Shown in pieces: positions 4,476-63,844 of a stretch of DNA of 64,000 nucleotides. The notes beneath the pieces are model-generated. The model was not told the origin of the DNA, did not search any database, and saw nothing but the letters and a program-made list of their open reading frames with translations. The position numbers and the translations under genes were made by a program. Within the stretch, counting starts at the first letter, position 1. Every line of letters begins with the position of its first letter. Origin of the DNA: Minisyncoccota bacterium (GTDB lineage: Bacteria; Patescibacteriota; Minisyncoccia; UBA6257; GWB1-50-10); contig JAGVBB010000003.1 of assembly GCA_020059915.1 (NCBI GenBank), positions 160,610 through 224,609 of the forward strand, read 5' to 3'.

Positions 4476-4633
4476 GTGCGGGGAGCAGTAGGAATCGCCT
4501 CTCGCTCTACTGAGCTCGAGACCTACGGCTTCTCTTCGAAGCCTGCGGCACTAAAGTATTGCTATTTGTAGTTAATTACTTCGTAATTAAACAAACAGGG
4601 AACCCGCGGTTCGATTCCTGCCACTTACAAAAT
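4476..4633 (-). repeat. tRNA-Trp 3'-end pseudo-copy (4476-4497) plus about 135-bp structured insert; member of the gene-3'-end-associated element family
   Basis: tgcggggagcagtaggaatcg matches the 3' acceptor/T-arm of the intact tRNA-Trp (tgcgggggcagtaggaatcg) about 200 bp away. The insert carries an AACCCgCGGTTcg hairpin module shared with the rpsI-associated element (AACCCaCGGTTt) and a 38-nt block shared with the tRNA-Tyr locus. Confidence 0.45.
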
Positions 4634-5084: not shown

Positions 5085-5341
5085 AGCCGATGGTCGGGAT
5101 TGAACCGACGACCTACTCCTTCGCTTACACCTCTTTTTCTGATTACGCGTATAAGAGGACTAGACTGTATCTTTCCGCTCGTGGCGGACCCTTGTCAGTC
5201 GTTCGAGCGCATAATGCGCTACGGTCTTGACCATGCGTTGGCTATTAACCGTAATTCGGGATTCACATATGCATTGCTACATATGTGGGCAGAGAACGAG
5301 CGTTCTACCATGGAGTTGCTCTACCGCTGAGCTACATCGGC
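5085..5341 (-). tRNA. trnT: tRNA-Thr (anticodon GGU) interrupted by a 185-nt intron after position 36
   Basis: 5' exon 5307-5341 is GCCGATG-TA-GCTCAGCGGTAGAGC-A-ACTCC-ATGGT. 3' exon 5085-5121 is AA-GGAGT-AGGTC-GTCGG-TTCAATC-CCGAC-CATCGGC-T. The anticodon stem ACTCC/GGAGT and acceptor stem pair perfectly; the mature length is 72 nt. Confidence 0.7.
5122..5306 (-). ncRNA. Putative group I self-splicing intron in the tRNA-Thr(GGU) anticodon loop
   Basis: The 5' exon ends in U and the intron ends in G (omegaG). It has a P7-like GACUG...CAGUC pairing with a P8 hairpin (UCCGCC-ACGA-GCGGA), and an S-element-like AAGAUACAGUCUAGUCC (compare AAGAUAUAGUCC). The intron lies between anticodon positions 36 and 37. 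Confidence 0.55.
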
Positions 5342-6597: not shown

Positions 6598-7789
6598 TAT
6601 GGTTGATAATACGAAGTGCTATTCCCCCGCTCATAATAACAAGAAATATAGAGGAAGTGAGCCACGCATATCGTATAGAATAGTTATCCGCGATCCATCC
6701 ACTTATGGGGAGTCCAATTGCCATTCCAACATGTCCCGCAAGCGCTTGTAGTGAAAGCAATGATGCTCGTTCTTCTGAAGGAATATGTGCATTCATATAT
6801 GCATCTGCAAATACACCATATGATCCACGAGAAATTTCGTGCATCAGAAACATGAATATTGAAAGAGATATTATAGGAGACAATGACGTACATATCATTA
6901 CCACACCAATAACAATTAATGAAATAATAAGCGGAACAGCAAAATCATTTCCCCCATTTTTTATTATCCTTTTTGATATGGATATACCAATAAAACTGAA
7001 TACTATAATTGCTACAAAGAACCAACCAAGCTGTGATGCTGATTGAATATATCCCTTAAAAAACGGTTGCCATTGCATGTTATATGCCTGCATTGCACAT
7101 GTTGCGATCCCAACAATAAGAAGAACATTTACCACATGTCTGCTCTGTTTTGCAAAAGACATTGTCTTTTTTGCTGTTGAAAGAAGATCTTTAAAACCTT
7201 CAGATACAGATACATAATTTCTTTTGACATGCTCTTCTTTCATGTAGATAACTGCGACAACACCAACAATGAAGAACACTAAACTACTCATAATCCATGG
7301 AGTTTGTAATCCGAATATCTCCGCGGCATATGAACCCATAAGAACACCAAATACTGCCCCAAGTTTTCTTACCTGCCCCGCACGAGTAAAAAGATTTCCT
7401 AGATCAACACTTCCTTCATGGAATGTGATGGTATCAACAATCCAGGCATCAAACGCACCAGTGGTGCATGTCATGCCAATTGCGATAATAACCTCGGCAA
7501 TTACGAACCATAAAAATTCTGGAGCAAATGCATACACAAATGTTCCAAAAGCAATAAGAAAACAAGAAACGATAAATGATGCCTTTCTCCCCCACGTGTC
7601 TGCAATAACCCCTGTCGGAAATTCGGCAAGAATAAGTGTTACTGCATACGCGGTGTTAACTAAGCTCGCATCAAGGATTGACAATCCCCTTGAAAGAAGG
7701 AACATTACATACGTAGCAAAATGAAATGACATTCCCCACTGTGTAATTCCTCCAAATGCGAGATACAAAAGATACATTCTCCGTGCCAT
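6578..7789 (-). CDS. MFS family transporter (12 TM)
   Basis: 403-aa highly hydrophobic ORF with MFS-like motifs (GVIADTWGRK, multiple TM pairs). Confidence 0.75.
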   Translation of the reverse strand: MARRMYLLYLAFGGITQWGMSFHFATYVMFLLSRGLSILDASLVNTAYAVTLILAEFPTGVIADTWGRKASFIVSCFLIAFGTFVYAFAPEFLWFVIAEVIIAIGMTCTTGAFDAWIVDTITFHEGSVDLGNLFTRAGQVRKLGAVFGVLMGSYAAEIFGLQTPWIMSSLVFFIVGVVAVIYMKEEHVKRNYVSVSEGFKDLLSTAKKTMSFAKQSRHVVNVLLIVGIATCAMQAYNMQWQPFFKGYIQSASQLGWFFVAIIVFSFIGISISKRIIKNGGNDFAVPLIISLIVIGVVMICTSLSPIISLSIFMFLMHEISRGSYGVFADAYMNAHIPSEERASLLSLQALAGHVGMAIGLPISGWIADNYSIRYAWLTSSIFLVIMSGGIALRIINHKKHPVG

Positions 7790-8162: not shown

Positions 8163-8413
8163 CGCAGGGGAGGATTCTCCTCTCACTCTGCTGAGTTCGA
8201 GACCTACGGCTTCAAAATCAAAGGATGCGGGTCGCGATGTTTTTTGGGGAGGATTTTCCTCACCCGTCACTTTCGCTCCTCCTTCGGAATCCAGGGTTCC
8301 TCGCTTTCGTTCGTTTCACTCACTCTTCGCATTCGCGCGCTCGGATACCCTTCGAATCCTCCTAGACATGAAACTAAAAAAGAAAGGACAAGTCCTTTCT
8401 TTTTTAGTTTGTG
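8163..8413 (-). repeat. tRNA-Tyr 3'-end pseudo-copy (8163-8177) plus about 235-bp insert; member of the gene-3'-end-associated element family
   Basis: cgcaggggaggattc is identical to the tRNA-Tyr 3' acceptor/T-arm 15-mer. The adjacent block ctctcactctgctgagttcgagacctacggcttc is paralogous to the tRNA-Trp locus block. A diverged match (cgctttcgttcgtttcactcactc) to the rplK/rpsI module is present, about 11/19 ungapped. Confidence 0.45.
8376..8406 (-). terminator. Terminator hairpin (aaaggac/gtccttt) directly 3' of tRNA-Tyr
   Basis: 7-bp stem flanked by A- and T-runs. Confidence 0.5.
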
Positions 8414-10651: not shown

Positions 10652-11346
10652 CTCCACTCTTCTATTAGCTTATGATTTCCAGATTGAAGCACCTCAGGTA
10701 CTTTCCAAATTTTTTTTCGTTTTCCTTTTTCTTGAATCACTACTTCCGCAGGTTTTGTATATACCGGATACGAACCCTTTATTTCTTCTAACGATTCCGT
10801 TTTTCCTAACACTCCAGGAATCTGACGCGATACTGCATCCATCACCACAAGTGCAGGTAATTCACCACCAGAAAGCACAAAATCTCCTATTGAGACCTCC
10901 TCATCTGCAATATATTCCGCAACACGTTCGTCTACTCCTTCATAGCGACCACAAATAAAAATGAGATGATTATATTTTGAAAGTCGCTTTGCATCCTCAT
11001 TGGTAAACACTTTTCCTCGTGTTGAAAACAAAATGGTTCGGCTCTGCTCACCACGGGCTGTTCGTGTTTTTCCCTTTTTTATTTTTGATAATACTTTTTC
11101 TACCGCTTTATAAATCGGTTCAACCTTGAGCACCATCCCCGGTCCTCCCCCGTATGGTGATTCATCAGTTATTTTATGTTTTCCCAATCCAAACTGGCGA
11201 AGTGCTACTGGATTTATTTTTATTAATTTCTTTTCTTGTGCGCGTCCAATAATTGAAGCATTACAGTATGACTCCAAAGATTCTGGAAATAACGAGATAA
11301 TGTGAAATGTTTTCATTGTCTTGCTTATTGAAACTATACCAAACAA
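10630..11346 (-). CDS. trmD: tRNA (guanine37-N1)-methyltransferase
   Basis: SPOUT/TrmD motifs (ISIGDFVLSGGELPALVVMDAVSRQIPGVLG). Confidence 0.85.
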   Translation of the reverse strand: MFGIVSISKTMKTFHIISLFPESLESYCNASIIGRAQEKKLIKINPVALRQFGLGKHKITDESPYGGGPGMVLKVEPIYKAVEKVLSKIKKGKTRTARGEQSRTILFSTRGKVFTNEDAKRLSKYNHLIFICGRYEGVDERVAEYIADEEVSIGDFVLSGGELPALVVMDAVSRQIPGVLGKTESLEEIKGSYPVYTKPAEVVIQEKGKRKKIWKVPEVLQSGNHKLIEEWRKNKQQS

Positions 11347-11382
11347 AAACCCCGCCAGTCCATGGACCGGCGGGATTCTTTT

Positions 11383-36187: not shown

Positions 36188-36216
36188 TTGACTACAATCA
36201 TTTTTCAGTTTATAAT
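36188..36216 (+). promoter_or_regulatory. Consensus sigma-70 promoter (TTGACT-17-TATAAT) for the small membrane protein operon
   Basis: -35 at 36188-36193 and -10 at 36211-36216, about 40 nt upstream of the ATG at 36255, which has a GGAG SD. Confidence 0.6.
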
Positions 36217-36254
36217 CTGAATAACATTAACAAACTAAATTTACAGGAGAAAAA

Positions 36255-36530
36255 ATGGATTTACCAAAAATCATCGGCATCATTGCCATGTTCCTTGCTT
36301 TAGCAAGTTTCGTTTATGCATTAGTAACTGATCCGTGGGATCCAAACGTAAAAAGAAAACAATTATTAGTTTCCTCTGCACTCATTGCTTTTTTTGGAAC
36401 AATCTTTGGTGTCTGCGTTGGTGTTGATTGCGCTAGTATAGCAGCTGGATTGACGTGTAGCGGAATATTTATTTTACTTGCGTTCATAATATTATTAGTA
36501 CGAAGAAATATAGAACCGATTATATATTAG
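36255..36530 (+). CDS. Hypothetical small membrane protein
   Basis: Three predicted TM segments, SD GGAGA. Confidence 0.4.
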   Translation: MDLPKIIGIIAMFLALASFVYALVTDPWDPNVKRKQLLVSSALIAFFGTIFGVCVGVDCASIAAGLTCSGIFILLAFIILLVRRNIEPIIY

Positions 36531-36545
36531 AAAATAGGAGGTTAT

Positions 36546-36881
36546 ATGCTATTTTTCCCTTTTTGGTGTTACTCGTTGCTTGGCTTATTGGGCATCTTCT
36601 ACGGACTCTATTTAGGAAGCTCTTTCCTAAGAAAGGAGTCCGGAACAAGTTACAGAAGTAAACTTGCAACCGTGATTGTAGTTCTCACTCTCAGTTCTTT
36701 AATTGTTGTACTCTCAGTTGCTGAAAGCATGAGGTATCTTCTATACCTTTCCATCATTACTTGGATAGTAATGATATTTATATGGACAGATAAAAAGATA
36801 AAGGGAATACAGAATTTCATTTCGTTTGTTCTTTTACTGCTTGCATCGGCGTTACTGATTTATATACGATTTCATTCATAA
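36546..36881 (+). CDS. Hypothetical small membrane protein
   Basis: SD AGGAGG before the ATG; multiple TM helices; a terminator hairpin (gaccc-taaat-gggtc plus T-run) follows. Confidence 0.4.
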   Translation: MLFFPFWCYSLLGLLGIFYGLYLGSSFLRKESGTSYRSKLATVIVVLTLSSLIVVLSVAESMRYLLYLSIITWIVMIFIWTDKKIKGIQNFISFVLLLLASALLIYIRFHS

Positions 36882-37013
36882 GACCCTAAATGGGTCTTTT
36901 TATTAAAAATAACAAAAATATACAATGGGGAGATTTTTGAAATTTAATCTCCTCATCGTATATTTCTTATATTATCCTGTTTTTACATATTTTTTATTGA
37001 TATAATTTATAGA

Positions 37014-38288
37014 ATGTTCAAAGGAATACGAAAGTTTGCTAGGTCAGCCGGCCCAGGAATAATTACTGGTGCTGCTGATGATGATCCATCTGGAATCGCA
37101 ACGTACTCACAAACTGGTGCCCAATTCGGATACGGACAATTATGGACCGCACTCTTTACGCTTCCCTTTTTGATTTCTATTCAAGAAGCGTGCGCACGTA
37201 TCGGCGCGGTACAAGGAAAAGGAATTGCCGCAGTAATAAAAGAACATTACAAAAAATGGGTTTTATATACAGTTGTATCCCTTGTTCTTATCGCTAACAC
37301 TATAAACATCGGGGCAAATCTCGGTGCTATGGGAGCAGCAACAAAACTTATTATCCCTATTCCCCTTCCGATACTTTTGCTATTTTTTTCCTTTCTCATT
37401 CTCTTCCTCGAAATTTTTATCTCATACAAATCATACGCAAAAATCTTGAAATGGTTCACCATTACCCTCCTTGCATACCCCATAACCGTCCTCCTTATAC
37501 AAATTCCGTGGAGTAAAGTTTTTTATGCAACATTTGTCCCAAATTTTGAATTGAGTTTTGGGTTTTTATTTATTATCACTGGAGTGGTAGGAACTACTAT
37601 CTCTCCTTACATGTTTTTTTGGCAAGCATCAGAAGAGGTTGAGGAAGAACGCATGAAGCATCTGATAGTGCATGGAAAACCAAAAATAACTCAACGTTTT
37701 TTGAAAGCAATAAAAAAAGACACTGCTATAGGAATGTTTTCATCAAACGTTGCTACATGGTGTATTATCGTTGTCGCGGGAACAGTACTATTTGCAGAAG
37801 GCATTACCGACATAAGAACAGCGGCAGATGCAGCACGAGCATTAGAACCACTTGTACAAACGTTTCCTAATGCCGGTTTCCTCGCAAAACTTATATTTTC
37901 AATTGGAATACTAGGTCTTGGGTTCCTTTCGATCCCCATACTCTCTGCTTCTGCATCATATGCAATATCAGAGGCATTTGGCTGGAAAGAGGGTTTGAAC
38001 CATAAATTTAAGCAAGCACAAGGGTTCTACGGTGTTATTATCGTAGCAACTGTCGTGGGACTCATGATTAATTTCATTGGTATTAATCCCATGAAAGCTC
38101 TTGTGTTTACTGCTGTGTTTAATGGGGTTGCTGCCATCCCTCTCATATTTATCATTGCCCGCACCGCACAGAACAAAAAAATAATGGGCGAATATGCAAG
38201 TGGCATACTTTCAAAAATATTTGTTTGGGTAACATTTATACTTATGGCAACTGCCGCTATTTTGATGTTCTATACACTAGCGAGATAG
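37014..38288 (+). CDS. mntH: NRAMP-family divalent metal cation transporter
   Basis: Nramp signature (GPGIITGAADDDPSGIATYSQTGAQFGY...LWTALFTLPF) and 11-12 TM helices. Confidence 0.8.
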   Translation: MFKGIRKFARSAGPGIITGAADDDPSGIATYSQTGAQFGYGQLWTALFTLPFLISIQEACARIGAVQGKGIAAVIKEHYKKWVLYTVVSLVLIANTINIGANLGAMGAATKLIIPIPLPILLLFFSFLILFLEIFISYKSYAKILKWFTITLLAYPITVLLIQIPWSKVFYATFVPNFELSFGFLFIITGVVGTTISPYMFFWQASEEVEEERMKHLIVHGKPKITQRFLKAIKKDTAIGMFSSNVATWCIIVVAGTVLFAEGITDIRTAADAARALEPLVQTFPNAGFLAKLIFSIGILGLGFLSIPILSASASYAISEAFGWKEGLNHKFKQAQGFYGVIIVATVVGLMINFIGINPMKALVFTAVFNGVAAIPLIFIIARTAQNKKIMGEYASGILSKIFVWVTFILMATAAILMFYTLAR

Positions 38289-38346
38289 GGTTTAGTGTCT
38301 AGGGGTTGGGGTTTAGAAAAATCTCCACATATATGTGGAGATTAAA

Positions 38347-38682
38347 CTAATTCTTTTTATATGCCGTATTCAATATATGTATAACATCAGAAAGATCCCT
38401 ACAATGCAAAATCGCATTAGAAAATGATTTTAAAACAGAATTTTTCATCCCATCTGGAGTTAAATCATCGGTATAAAAATTTAAGAAAACCTCCGCTGTT
38501 TTTGCAACAGAATAAAGATTCTTTTCCTTATACAATTCTGCACCAAAAAAACCTATATTTGATTTCTTAACAACTACACCATCCTGTGCAACACTAATCC
38601 AACATGGTTCATTTGTGTCAGTCCTAAATCTCGCCCAACAGGCTCCGCCCTCAACATCCTTAAACGAAATGATTTTTATCAT
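38347..38682 (-). CDS. Hypothetical protein (in a segment inserted between NRAMP and its displaced 3' end)
   Basis: 111-aa ORF, no family recognised. It lies between the NRAMP stop and an NRAMP 3'-end pseudo-copy. Confidence 0.4.
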   Translation of the reverse strand: MIKIISFKDVEGGACWARFRTDTNEPCWISVAQDGVVVKKSNIGFFGAELYKEKNLYSVAKTAEVFLNFYTDDLTPDGMKNSVLKSFSNAILHCRDLSDVIHILNTAYKKN

Positions 38683-38729
38683 ATTTGTATTCTAGTAGAA
38701 TTCAATAAATTTGAACAAACGTTATTATA

Positions 38730-38773
38730 GTTGCTGCTATTCTAATGCTTTACACGCTTTGTAATGGAGTTTA
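38730..38773 (+). pseudogene. Displaced pseudo-copy of the NRAMP gene 3' end
   Basis: In-frame translation VAAILMLYTLCNGV* against the real C-terminus TAAILMFYTLAR*. About 70% nucleotide identity to 38247-38288. Confidence 0.45.
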
Positions 38774-38800
38774 AAAAGACGAAACTCAACAAAAGTGAAA

Positions 38801-39223
38801 TTAGTCTTTTTTTGTTTTTAAAAAATAGATCAATAAAAATAGAATACTAATTCCTAAGGCCTGCTGGTATGTTCTCGTTGAGTCTGTTTTAATCGAACCT
38901 AAAAAAAGATTTTTTTGCTCTCCCTCTTCTAACTTATCTGCAAGTTCTTTACATTTTTGTGAAATTGGAGAAAAATGTGAAACACACAATTCAAATGAAT
39001 TACCTACGTAATTCATTTGAATATGCAAAACTGGAAAAAATAAACGTAAAACTATTAATAAAGTGCCAAAAACCAAAACTGTTTTTGGCTTTATATTTTT
39101 AAAAAATTCAAGAAGAAATTCCCAACCAATAATAATTTGAAGAACAAAAAGCAAAAATAGGTTCTCTGGTGTGACTTTTTTTCCTCCACTTTTTATTTTT
39201 TCTAATAAATCTATTTTCTTCAT
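38801..39223 (-). CDS. Hypothetical membrane protein
   Basis: The track ORF start at 39265 overlaps tRNA-Val; the internal start MKKIDLL at 39223 avoids the tRNA. Confidence 0.4.
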   Translation of the reverse strand: MKKIDLLEKIKSGGKKVTPENLFLLFVLQIIIGWEFLLEFFKNIKPKTVLVFGTLLIVLRLFFPVLHIQMNYVGNSFELCVSHFSPISQKCKELADKLEEGEQKNLFLGSIKTDSTRTYQQALGISILFLLIYFLKTKKD

Positions 39224-39229
39224 AACTCG

Positions 39230-39303
39230 TGGGCAATACTGGACTCGAACCAGTGACCTTTGCAATGTGAATGCAACGCTCTAACCAACTGAGCTAATTG
39301 CCC
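39230..39303 (-). tRNA. trnV: tRNA-Val (anticodon CAC)
   Basis: Hand-folded. GGGCAAT-TA-GCTCAGTTGGTTAGAGC-G-TTGCA-TTCACAT-TGCAA-AGGTC-ACTGG-TTCGAGT-CCAGT-ATTGCCC-A. Confidence 0.85.
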
Positions 39304-39346
39304 CTAGAACTTGTTTATACTATCATCCAAGCCCATCAAACTCAAA

Positions 39347-39376
39347 CCCCGCCACTCCATGGAGTGGCGGGGTTTT
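39347..39376. terminator. Bidirectional terminator (ccccgccactcc-at-ggagtggcgggg)
   Basis: 12-bp perfect stem followed by TTTT; lies between rplL and tRNA-Val. Confidence 0.6.
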
Positions 39377-39407
39377 CTAATAGCTAAACCCTAATCACTA
39401 GTGACTA

Positions 39408-39767
39408 TTATTTAAGTTCAACTACTGCACCTGCTGCTTCAAGAGTCTTCTTGAGCTCTTCTGCCTCTTCTTTCTTCATCCCCTTCTTCACCTCCTTTGG
39501 AGCTCCTTCAACCAAATCCTTTGCCTCTTTAAGACCAAGTCCAGTTGCCTCTTTGATGATCTTGATAACATTGATCTTCTGTTCGCCACCATTTGAGAGA
39601 ACAACATCCCACGATGTCTTCTCTTCTACTGCTGCCACTGCAGGTCCTGCTACTGCCATCGCTGCTGCTGAAACACCAAACTTCTCTTCGAGTGCTTTTA
39701 CTAATTCTGAAAGCTCAAGCACTGTAAGCTTTTCAACCTCTTCAATAATTTTGTTAAATTTTTCCAT
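39408..39767 (-). CDS. rplL: 50S ribosomal protein L7/L12
   Basis: L7/L12 N-terminal dimerisation region, Ala-rich hinge and C-terminal domain ([10 protein letters not shown]). Confidence 0.9.
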
Positions 39768-39780
39768 ATTATTATTTAAT

Positions 39781-40269
39781 TTACGACTTTTTTGCTTTTT
39801 CTTGTAAAACTACCATAAATGAACGAATTGGGGTTCCCAACATATATACCAACTGACCCAACAACACTTCTCTTCCAGGAAGTTGTCCAATTGCCTTCGT
39901 ATCGTTTGCACTAATAAAGCTTTTTTCAAGAACATTAAAACCACCCAATATTTTGAGTTTGTTTTGAACTTTTGAAAATTTATATACAACACCGGCAGTT
40001 TCCACCATATCTTTTGGAGAAAAAACTACGCCGGCTTGCCCCGCAAAGTTAGATGGAGTAAACTCCATTCCCTCTTTCTCAAAGACATATTTTAACAAAC
40101 GTTTCTTGAACACGGACATTGTTCCACCCAAATCAAACACATTCTTTCGAAGTGTATTCATTTCATTTGCAGAAAGACCGGTAAAATCAGTAATAACTAC
40201 TGACTGAGCATTTTTTAATGTCACCGCCCCTTCTTCAATTTGTGTTAATTTTTGTTTCTTTGTTTTCAT
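39781..40269 (-). CDS. rplJ: 50S ribosomal protein L10
   Basis: L10 core ([19 protein letters not shown]); start taken at MKTKKQ (ATG 40269). Confidence 0.8.
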
Positions 40270-40323: not shown

Positions 40324-40572
40324 CTACCCATCATTTTTTATTCGTTGTTTTATATATCGTTTACCCCACGCAGACTTCAGATAAAGTTCACGAGCATGAA
40401 TATCCTTACTATTTCTACTTGCTTCATAATAAACAAGTTCTAATGGTAAACGATTTTTTGTACTTTGAACTCTACCACTACAATGTTCATCAAAACGCTT
40501 CTTAAGATCACTAGTCTTACCTACATAAAAATTCTGATCTTTTGCGCTTCTAAGAACATACACATAGTACAT
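40324..40572 (-). CDS. Stand-alone GIY-YIG nuclease domain protein (82 aa)
   Basis: YYVYVLRS...NFYVGKTSDLKKRFDEH...R...LVYYE GIY-YIG motif set. Confidence 0.7.
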   Translation of the reverse strand: MYYVYVLRSAKDQNFYVGKTSDLKKRFDEHCSGRVQSTKNRLPLELVYYEASRNSKDIHARELYLKSAWGKRYIKQRIKNDG

Positions 40573-63180: not shown

Positions 63181-63191
63181 AGAAAAACACA

Positions 63192-63406
63192 ACAGTGGAG
63201 AAAGCAAAAATCCCGCCTTTGGCGGGATTTACTTTAACGCTTTCTCCGAATGCTGCATCGCTTCGCTCTTTAGAAACCCACGGTTTCTAACGCTCGTTTT
63301 ACTCGCTGTTTTCCTCCACGGGGAGAGACTCATTTCCTGTCTCTCCCCGAACCCCTCTCTCACAACAGTGGAGAAAGCAAAAATCCCGCCAAAGGCGGGA
63401 TTTACT
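63192..63406 (-). repeat. rpsI-associated structured element: insert (63251-63367) between the rpsI terminator region and a pseudo-copy of the rpsI 3' end plus terminator (63192-63250)
   Basis: About 58-bp direct repeat carrying ggagaaagcgttaa, terminator aaatcccgcc-NNNN-ggcgggattt, and gctttctccactgttgt. Insert modules CGCTCGTTTTACTCGCT, AAACCCACGGTTT and TTTCCTCCAC-GGGGAGAGAC..GTCTCTCCCC match the rplK-associated element. Confidence 0.55.
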
Positions 63407-63844
63407 TTAACGCTTTCTCCACTGTTGTGGTCTGCGGGCTTTACGAAGTCCAGGATGTTTTCGTTCCACCATTCGTGGATCACGCTTTAAGAAACCAAGT
63501 ACTTTCAAATTTGCTCTCCAAATTGGATTGAGCATAATGAGCGTTCGGGAAATTCCCAAACGAATTGCTTCTGCTTGTGCGGTTGTTCCCCCACCAACAA
63601 CATTCACTGAAACCTTATAGGAATCAAGGGATAATGTAGTAAATGGATCAATTACTATTTTTCTCAATCTTTCCGTACCAAAATATTTAGCAAAACTTTT
63701 TTCGTTAACAAGCACCTCTGATTTATCAAATTTCCCAGTAAATAATCGAACTCGAGCAACTGCAGTTTTTCTTCGTCCAACAGCCTCAAAATATTTAGTT
63801 CCTTTTATTGACTTTGTAGTCTCTTTTACTTTTGTAGTTGTCAT
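63407..63844 (-). CDS. rpsI: 30S ribosomal protein S9
   Basis: S9 core and C-terminal KARRPQQWRKR; rplM-rpsI synteny. Confidence 0.9.
   Translation of the reverse strand: MTTTKVKETTKSIKGTKYFEAVGRRKTAVARVRLFTGKFDKSEVLVNEKSFAKYFGTERLRKIVIDPFTTLSLDSYKVSVNVVGGGTTAQAEAIRLGISRTLIMLNPIWRANLKVLGFLKRDPRMVERKHPGLRKARRPQQWRKR

Follow-up and report, generated by a model that had tools for sequence, protein, structure and literature searches.

A relic NRAMP gene end in the hypervariable slot beside tRNA-Val of a Minisyncoccota genome: a probable scar of recombination between lineages

Why should an intact gene be followed, a few hundred nucleotides (nt) downstream, by a second and dead copy of a gene end of its own kind? 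The gene in question encodes an NRAMP divalent-metal transporter and occupies 37014-38288 (+) of a 64,000-nt stretch of DNA, hereafter the window, from a Minisyncoccota bacterium (assembly GCA_020059915.1, contig JAGVBB010000003.1). Some 440 nt separate its live end from the downstream piece; they contain a terminator hairpin, an open reading frame (ORF) of 111 codons on the minus strand, ORF111, and a promoter-like stretch. A sequence-only reading had taken these for a mobile insert that displaced the native tail of the gene, a view that finds partial support. A genuine relic of an NRAMP C-terminus does lie downstream; it has the ending of the 426-amino-acid (aa) type found in relatives, and it is probably the scar of a segment replacement between related lineages with homology on one side. 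The features from the live tail to the right border of the locus are:

38250-38288 (+): live C-terminal tail TAAILMFYTLAR and stop, 424-aa type; L003 and L007 have the same tail
38289-38326 (+): 3' flank GGTTTAGTGTCTAGGGGTTGGGG..., common to L007 and L003; the homology of the window to L007 stops at 38326
38320-38343: terminator-like hairpin with a perfect 10-base pair (bp) stem between the convergent NRAMP and ORF111; UUUUUC follows on the minus strand
38347-38682 (-): ORF111, protein-coding, accessory cargo (codon differences from L003, homologue family)
38683-38726 (-): promoter-like sequence belonging to the ORF111 cassette; the DNA common to the window and L003 ends here on the right
38727-38774 (+): relic NRAMP tail IVAAILMLYTLCNGV and stop (TAA, 38772-38774), 426-aa type (six-frame scan, tail profile, tail alignment)
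38775-38800: 26-nt spacer between the relic stop and the convergent ORF141 stop; weak AAAAAGAC/GTCTTTTT stem, T-run
38801-39226 (-): ORF141, orphan membrane-like ORF of uncertain coding status, starting 2 nt from the tRNA-Val 3' end
39229-39303 (-): tRNA-Val(CAC), conserved right border of the slot (ARAGORN, Rfam; same place in L004, L005 and L093)

The relic comprises 16 codons (ATA GTT GCT GCT ATT CTA ATG CTT TAC ACG CTT TGT AAT GGA GTT TAA) and lies exactly 480 nt 3' of the live tail, hence in the same frame. A six-frame scan of the 64 kb returns it as the top non-self match to the last residues of NRAMP (BLOSUM62 score 37; runner-up 26), and it ranks first when every ORF of at least 100 aa in the window is given the same 3'-end test. 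Against a profile hidden Markov model of the tail, built only from the C-termini of 120 database homologues, it scores 12.8 bits (E 0.022 among 5,664 six-frame peptides) and aligns to the very end of the profile. The similarity is significant, since none of the ~39,500 control peptides exceeds 10.1 bits, the highest score of a small peptide at 80 other NRAMP loci in GTDB (33,893 peptides). No displaced tail is found at these 80 loci. The piece is also absent from all relatives examined and does not lie within any conserved gene or untranslated region (UTR) of theirs. L008, a separately listed JGI metagenome contig that covers 31843-39341, shows the same arrangement at 100% identity.

The live and the dead end are of different types. 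The live core TAAILMFYTL (38250-38279) and the relic core VAAILMLYTL (38730-38759) have 8 of 10 residues and 20 of 30 nt in common, i.e. 67%, where about 70% had been estimated; the longest identical run between live tail and relic is 6 nt. The place given for the relic in the sequence-only reading stands, its right end (38773) being one base short of 38774 and its start of the real tail (38247) one codon ahead of 38250. The relic ends in CNGV before its stop, as against AR in the live tail, and its type is 2 codons longer. The window, its close strains and P0009 have an NRAMP of 424 aa ending in ...YTL(A/L)(R/K) (L093 ends in ...YTLLK and L006 in ...YTLLR). The nearest homologues, which are 80-82% identical, have 426 aa and end in ...AA(I/V)LMFYTL(G/S/T)(S/N/K)G(V/I). 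Indeed, the nearest syntenic relatives, checked for a relic-type ending, carry the 426-aa ...YTLxxGV ending, and none of them the relic. When the relic is aligned by its stop codon to 81 live NRAMP tails, the highest identities are to L005/L009 (67%), L004 (62.5%) and L010 (60%), which are the nearest syntenic relatives; the median is 33%.

Six of the 10 differences between live tail and relic fall at third codon positions (binomial P 0.077, over a stretch of just 30-48 nt), and the codon changes amount to 5 synonymous and 2 non-synonymous. Identity between the two is 64-67%, compared with ~64% between the live tails of the window and L005 (21/33 nt, by-eye count). Because of the third-position bias, and because the distance equals that between live tails of the lineages, the two ends appear to have diverged as working gene ends in separate lineages rather than by decay of a duplicate in place. 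The proposal of an older event, read from the divergence of the repeat, is not borne out on the same grounds. The relic itself is without function.

The transporter is intact, and the NRAMP case is by itself without functional consequence. The 424-aa protein, which ends at a TAG (38286-38288), has a full-length match to PF01566 (Pfam; E 1.6e-73, 248 bits vs a cut-off of 29.8, residues 28-396). Its closest named relatives are metagenome-assembled genomes labelled "Candidatus Paceibacterota" and "Parcubacteria group". At the nucleotide level it is 94.7-95.0% identical to L003 and L007 and 93.0% to L093; against L007 and L003 identity is 99% in the centre of the gene and 90-92% at its ends. No breakpoint with 426-type relatives is seen inside the gene: no segment falls to between-genus identity relative to L003 and L007, and no internal crossover can be placed. 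Within the window the full-length profile detects neither a displaced NRAMP 5' end nor further NRAMP fragments.

Where the second end came from is best approached through the surroundings of the gene in relatives. The order murE-pbp-ftsL-rsmH-mraZ-(small ORFs)-NRAMP-slot-tRNA-Val-rplL-rplJ-...-dnaJ-dnaK is conserved in L004, L005 and L006. The neighbour proteins of these three are 74-95% identical to those of the window, a range that brackets the 76-82% of NRAMP. The slot, from the NRAMP stop to the tRNA-Val 3' end, contains:

window: ORF111, the relic and ORF141
L003: ORF111, ORF137 and ORF264
L004: a GDSL lipase
L005: a 255-aa gene
L006: an inverted tRNA-Val, a reverse transcriptase (RVT_1) and bAvd
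L093 and L007: empty, ~90 nt of own sequence, with no ORF111, relic or ORF141

This slot is small, hypervariable and fast-turning-over, with different contents from one relative to the next. L004 and L005 each have a single convergent gene, which starts beside tRNA-Val and reaches to the NRAMP stop, at a distance of 0 nt in L004 and 4 nt in L005. The order relic-ORF141-tRNA-Val of the window has the same geometry. The RVT_1 and bAvd genes of L006 (7631-9362) look like a diversity-generating retroelement.

All four close strains (window, L003, L007 and L093) have a 424-aa NRAMP. The flanks of L093, which belongs to the same species, are 96.9% identical to those of the window and its MraZ is identical; L007 shows nucleotide identities of 96.5% for rsmH, 99% for mraZ and 94.4% for NRAMP. 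The right half of the empty slot is in L007 as in L093, yet its AR-type tail and the next 38 nt are as in the window. These strains do not bear out the view that the pseudo-copy is the gene's own displaced end. Since the close strains are of the 424-aa type and two of their slots are empty and free of the relic, a 426-type relic could equally have come with the ORF141/tRNA-Val segment.

The limits of homology between strains are sharp. On the left they lie at 37013, at the NRAMP start codon, in every pairwise comparison; on the right they lie at 38279, just after YTL, for L093 and at 38326, ~38 nt past the stop, for L007. The block common to the window and L003 runs from 37013 to ~38726 and stops exactly at the relic start. 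Because the boundaries sit at its edges in strain comparisons, the NRAMP coding sequence is a conserved island between two variable gaps. The upstream gap (35998-37012) contains two small membrane ORFs of 91 and 111 aa in the window, one of 93 aa in L093, no ORF in L007 (where it measures 283 nt) and a dihydrofolate reductase (DHFR)-like gene in L003. Outside the common block, the flanks of L003 differ from those of the window, with this DHFR-like gene upstream and ORF264 and tRNA-Val(TAC) downstream. L003 also carries an additional 137-aa membrane ORF, ORF137, upstream of ORF111 and preceded by the same promoter stretch. In the window ORF111 is fused to that stretch, which would fit a deletion of ORF137 between two TTATCATA repeats. 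Neither ORF137 nor ORF264 has a family match in Pfam, NCBIfam or PADLOC. A second relic suspected by eye in L003, IVMTTFYILGNTY followed by a stop directly after the shared cassette, was rejected, as it is not among the 25 best profile matches, the lowest of which has 4.0 bits.

ORF111, the only gene between the two ends, is a real gene, as the sequence-only reading supposed, and is under purifying selection. Window and L003 copies, 87.5% identical in nucleotide sequence, differ by 33 synonymous and 7 non-synonymous codons, and 36 of the 42 nt changes are at third positions. The cassette is self-contained in layout. Upstream, a putative promoter can be read by eye (TTGTTC, 38718-38713; 18 nt; TAGAAT, 38694-38689; then 6 nt to the ATG), and the hairpin at 38320-38343 folds on the minus strand with -16.2 kcal/mol (z -5.0). 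A homologue in L001 is 64% identical, adjoins tRNA-Arg and has no NRAMP nearby, and further homologues (41-44% identical) are found on GC-rich contigs. An exhaustive profile search extends the family to 296 representative clusters at E<=1e-3. Many members are N-terminal domains of proteins of 250-540 aa, some with PilZ, Sel1 or zinc-ribbon parts, none of which is a pointer to mobility. ORF111 has no family match in Pfam, NCBIfam or PADLOC, a non-significant one in PHROG (E 0.096), and no matching relatives from phages, plasmids or the viral contigs of IMG/VR. Its AlphaFold model is unreliable, with a predicted local distance difference test (pLDDT) score of 52.

Nothing in ORF111 points to moving DNA, and it is passive cargo rather than the agent of the event. 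In the slot of the window (ORF111 and ORF141; Pfam, NCBIfam, PADLOC) there is no recombinase, transposase or homing enzyme. Terminal inverted repeats (TIRs) are missing at 38289/38726, as are direct repeats or a target-site duplication (TSD) at the boundaries, and the 64-kb window has no other copy of the insert. Together with the want of an identical core longer than 6 nt and of phage, plasmid or viral relatives of ORF111, this speaks against a mobile element in the insert. A transposon, insertion sequence or miniature inverted-repeat transposable element was rejected on these grounds (no TIRs, no short TSD, no transposase, no other copy in the window). Insertion of a homing endonuclease, intron or intein was likewise set aside: ORF111 has no Pfam match, and tRNA-Val is the only Rfam family in 35800-39500, so that the insert holds no self-splicing RNA. 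A polymorphic toxin/immunity module of the Rhs or CdiA type was dismissed too, the tail being the last membrane helix of a transporter and ORF111 lying on the opposite strand without a defence or immunity match.

These findings are best accommodated by a scar of segment replacement, whose mechanism of one-sided homology, route of uptake and direction we infer. DNA from a related but diverged lineage would have been taken up, plausibly by natural transformation. One side of it would then have recombined homologously, and the other would have been joined illegitimately at 38726/38727, a process known as homology-facilitated illegitimate recombination. Such a join would bring the NRAMP 3' ends of two lineages into one locus. 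One would be the live 424-aa type with its terminator and the self-contained ORF111 cassette of promoter, ORF and terminator; the other would be the 16 dead codons of the 426-aa type, still facing the convergent ORF141 and tRNA-Val as in the relatives. The proposal draws on the anchors next to the variable segment, namely the NRAMP coding sequence (93-95%) and tRNA-Val with its hairpin (97.9%), the identities being to strains with different slots. It also draws on the abrupt non-homologous junction at ~38726, at the relic start, which has no att, TSD or TIR features. Replacement by one-sided homology that leaves displaced 3' ends has been proposed for Vibrio type VI secretion system (T6SS) and rhs loci (PMC5361080). 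An uptake-based segment replacement is made plausible by the natural competence shown for Saccharibacteria, which are a lineage of Patescibacteria (PMC10633639/PMC10187176).

As to the direction, it is conceivable, and we lean slightly this way, that the species natively had NRAMP(424) and received a foreign fragment reaching from 48 nt inside a 426-type NRAMP through ORF141 into tRNA-Val. The tRNA would have served as the anchor of this fragment, and its illegitimate join would have formed just past the promoter of ORF111, so that the foreign tail arrived with ORF141 and the 3' part of tRNA-Val. This order needs fewer events because all four close strains are of the 424-aa type and two have empty slots. 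Also in its favour, the T-loop of the tRNA-Val of the window is like that of L005 and L010, and its 5' part and spacer match those of the same-species L093. The converse is doubtful: the locus would once have had NRAMP(426) facing ORF141, and an incoming segment with NRAMP(424) and ORF111 would have replaced all but the last 16 codons.

Several points weigh against a scar of this origin. No donor or ancestor in which ...AAILMLYTLCNGV and a stop are followed by ORF141 has been found. As ORF141 is an orphan, the event cannot be reconstructed and no donor can be named. The crossover signal in tRNA-Val amounts to 3 nucleotides. The junction at 38726/38727 lies just 8 nt beyond the by-eye -35 hexamer (38713-38718), a position that is compatible, too, with a discrete cassette having a fixed boundary. 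The 3'-end repeats of rplK, tRNA-Trp and tRNA-Tyr in the same window (see below) hint at a more specific process in this genome. Finally, competence is reported for Saccharibacteria only, not for this lineage.

Of the other explanations, we regard an integrative element of the icd/e14 type, either decayed or non-autonomous, as unlikely. A recombinase would have put the element into the NRAMP 3' end; the element would have supplied a substitute tail and pushed the native one to its far end, and the integrase and most of the DNA would since have been lost, leaving ORF111. The layout does match icd-e14-icdC, with an intact gene, an insert and a C-terminal pseudo-fragment (PMC13626634), the tail differences are mostly synonymous, other gene-3'-end repeats exist within the window, and the slot borders a tRNA 3' end of which L093 and L007 carry a 10-nt repeat. 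Against it, the slots of the window, L003, L004 and L005 have no recombinase, and ORF111 has no phage, plasmid or viral relatives. The two tails offer no usable att core because their longest identical run is 6 nt (the 30-nt core is 67% identical). Moreover, the differences between the window and the empty-slot strains do not lie at the repeat boundaries; these strains keep the 424-aa tail, and their empty sites do not correspond to a precise loss between the repeats. The 80 other NRAMP loci are free of displaced tails, so that attachment does not recur at the NRAMP 3' end. A bolder reading is that Patescibacteria carry tiny recombinase-less 'tail-replacing' cassettes, each with a fresh gene end, a terminator and, under its own promoter, a small cargo. 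These would insert a few codons before the stops of conserved genes, or into tRNAs, via a trans-acting enzyme or a dedicated uptake/recombination route, and the NRAMP, rplK, tRNA-Trp and tRNA-Tyr scars would be their products. This we consider distinctly improbable.

Three further accounts have little to commend them. An in-situ duplication, in which insertion of the cassette duplicated its target (as a long target-site or tandem duplication) and the downstream copy decayed, would explain direct copies in the same frame, 480 nt apart, that flank an insert. It is rendered very improbable by copies only 64-67% identical, whereas the flanking cassette differs by 5-12% between strains, as well as by the third-position bias (6/10), the relatives-type ending of the relic (CNGV vs AR, 2 codons longer) and the possession of the live tail without the relic by L003 and L007. 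A chance resemblance, or a chimera assembled from the haplotypes of two strains, comes to mind since the relic is short (16 codons), hydrophobic and of low complexity and the genome derives from metagenomes. We give this hardly any credence: the relic is an outlier in three independent null tests, in register with a stop and closest to the tails of the nearest relatives, the second listed contig has the arrangement at 100% identity, and any k-mer common to the tails is too short for a mis-join. A tandem NRAMP paralogue that was once present and then mostly deleted would leave just such a same-strand 3' fragment. It is the least credible of all, there being a single NRAMP and no tandem paralogue in each of the 80 GTDB loci and in every syntenic relative, and no other NRAMP fragment in the window.

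Related systems are known elsewhere. Displacement of 3' ends at rhs and Vibrio cholerae T6SS effector loci has been attributed to homology-facilitated illegitimate recombination (PMC5361080; Jackson et al. 2009, PMC2935791, as cited there). Common to those loci and the present one are a conserved 5' anchor, incoming DNA with a new 3' end and a small downstream gene, an old 3' end kept downstream as an orphan, no integrase, and alternative alleles in the same slot across the population. In contrast, NRAMP is a housekeeping transporter whose tail is the end of a membrane helix and not a polymorphic toxin domain. Furthermore, ORF111 is on the opposite strand without sign of an immunity gene, there is one relic and not an array, and the direction of displacement is only tentatively that of a foreign tail arriving and still more doubtfully the reverse. 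In E. coli, e14 (and phage 21) occupies the 3' end of the isocitrate dehydrogenase gene, with the icdC pseudo-fragment at the far end (PMC13626634; Hill et al. 1989, as cited there). The intact gene with last codons supplied by the insert, the same-strand C-terminal pseudo-copy and the largely conservative or synonymous differences are alike. However, e14 has 15 kb, an integrase and precise excision at att, compared with ~440 nt, no recombinase and no identical core here, and the strain polymorphism at the NRAMP slot does not follow the repeat boundaries. The slot also resembles tRNA-adjacent variable islets, where tRNA 3' ends are hot spots of integration: it abuts the tRNA-Val 3' end, its content differs in every relative, and L093 and L007 have a short repeat of the tRNA 3' end. 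Unlike in such islets, there is no tRNA-Val fragment on the NRAMP side of the slot and no integrase, and the repeated piece is the end of a protein-coding gene.

The NRAMP scar is a further instance of an already known type, real but fairly ordinary. Its interest is that of a small molecular fossil, showing that diverged lineages exchange the intervals next to conserved genes and tRNAs even where, as in this Patescibacteria genome, the DNA is ultra-small and poor in genes. Such exchanges can leave dead gene ends, from which donor lineages and the earlier order of genes could be traced in uncultured bacteria.

ORF141, on the right side of the slot, may not be a real gene. It has no homologues among 5.8 billion proteins, the sole database match being ORF141 itself. 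Within it lie a perfect 15-bp palindrome (38989-39022) and another hairpin (39057-39097). The weak stem in the spacer next to it is not significant on folding (z -0.7 on the plus strand, -1.95 on the minus strand). On its other side, tRNA-Val is followed by a palindromic terminator and then rplL. The 10-nt repeat of the tRNA-Val 3' end in L093 (reverse strand) and L007, GTGGGCAATA, stands 30 nt before the tRNA and could be the trace of an earlier integration or excision there.

The leader of the NRAMP terminator (38293-38320) matches, in inverted orientation, that of the rplL terminator (39373-39400) at 21 of 28 positions, and the pair brackets the slot and tRNA-Val. The statistic computed for this 28-nt match is circular, its pattern having been taken from the two copies, and the match is a lead only. 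In L006 a segment with tRNA-Val and a hairpin (7276-7443) lies in reversed orientation directly beside NRAMP, which is what recombination between inverted copies of this sort would produce.

Other genes of the window also have displaced 3' ends. For rplK (-), the last 30 nt and the stop, cggaatatgggaatagaaattattgactaa, recur 158 nt downstream (27106-27142 vs 26946-26984; 26/30 identical). In this region (26918-27142, -) a small new hairpin follows the live end and a CCCCGCC...GGCGGG palindrome the displaced one. For tRNA-Trp and tRNA-Tyr, 13-15 nt of the 3' ends recur ~190-250 nt downstream (4485-4532 and 8163-8213), each repeat being preceded by a common 43-nt motif, GAAGCCGTAGGTCTCGARCTCAGYAGAGYGAGAGG (88% identical), which is suggestive of a small insert family located in the T-arm and 3' end of tRNAs. 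The NRAMP case had been assigned the same signature as rplK and the tRNAs. The repeats are real and the layout is alike, whereas the NRAMP insert has no sequence in common with the rplK, tRNA-Trp or tRNA-Tyr repeats and is not the same element. Several similar scars in one window suggest that the process is frequent here.

A palindromic terminator, AAACCCCGCCAnTCCATGGAnTGGCGGGGTTT, is repeated after three unrelated genes (11340-11377, 26918-26957 and 39337-39374), and the short-read contigs L092 and L093 break inside it. Further to the right, rplJ (39781-40269) and the 5' half of rplL (39408-39767) are 83-91% identical to L092, of which dnaJ is 97.7% identical and the RplL protein identical; this stretch looks like a recombination tract from a diverged lineage. 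Between rplJ and dnaJ lies a stand-alone 82-aa GIY-YIG nuclease ORF (40324-40572, -), and L004, L005 and L092 have other small ORFs at this position. In L001 (229-770 and 1921-2024), a hairpin array (AAAGTTTTGCGACGGCAAAACTTT-like), earlier called small genes, lies upstream of the ORF111 homologue, with an S-adenosylmethionine (SAM) riboswitch close to it on the minus strand. Part of tRNA-Thr recurs at 5315-5334 of the window, 1.1 kb away from the gene, as an exact inverted copy of 20 nt, and near the window end a 60-nt direct repeat (95%) occupies 63188-63247 and 63361-63420, 173 nt from start to start.

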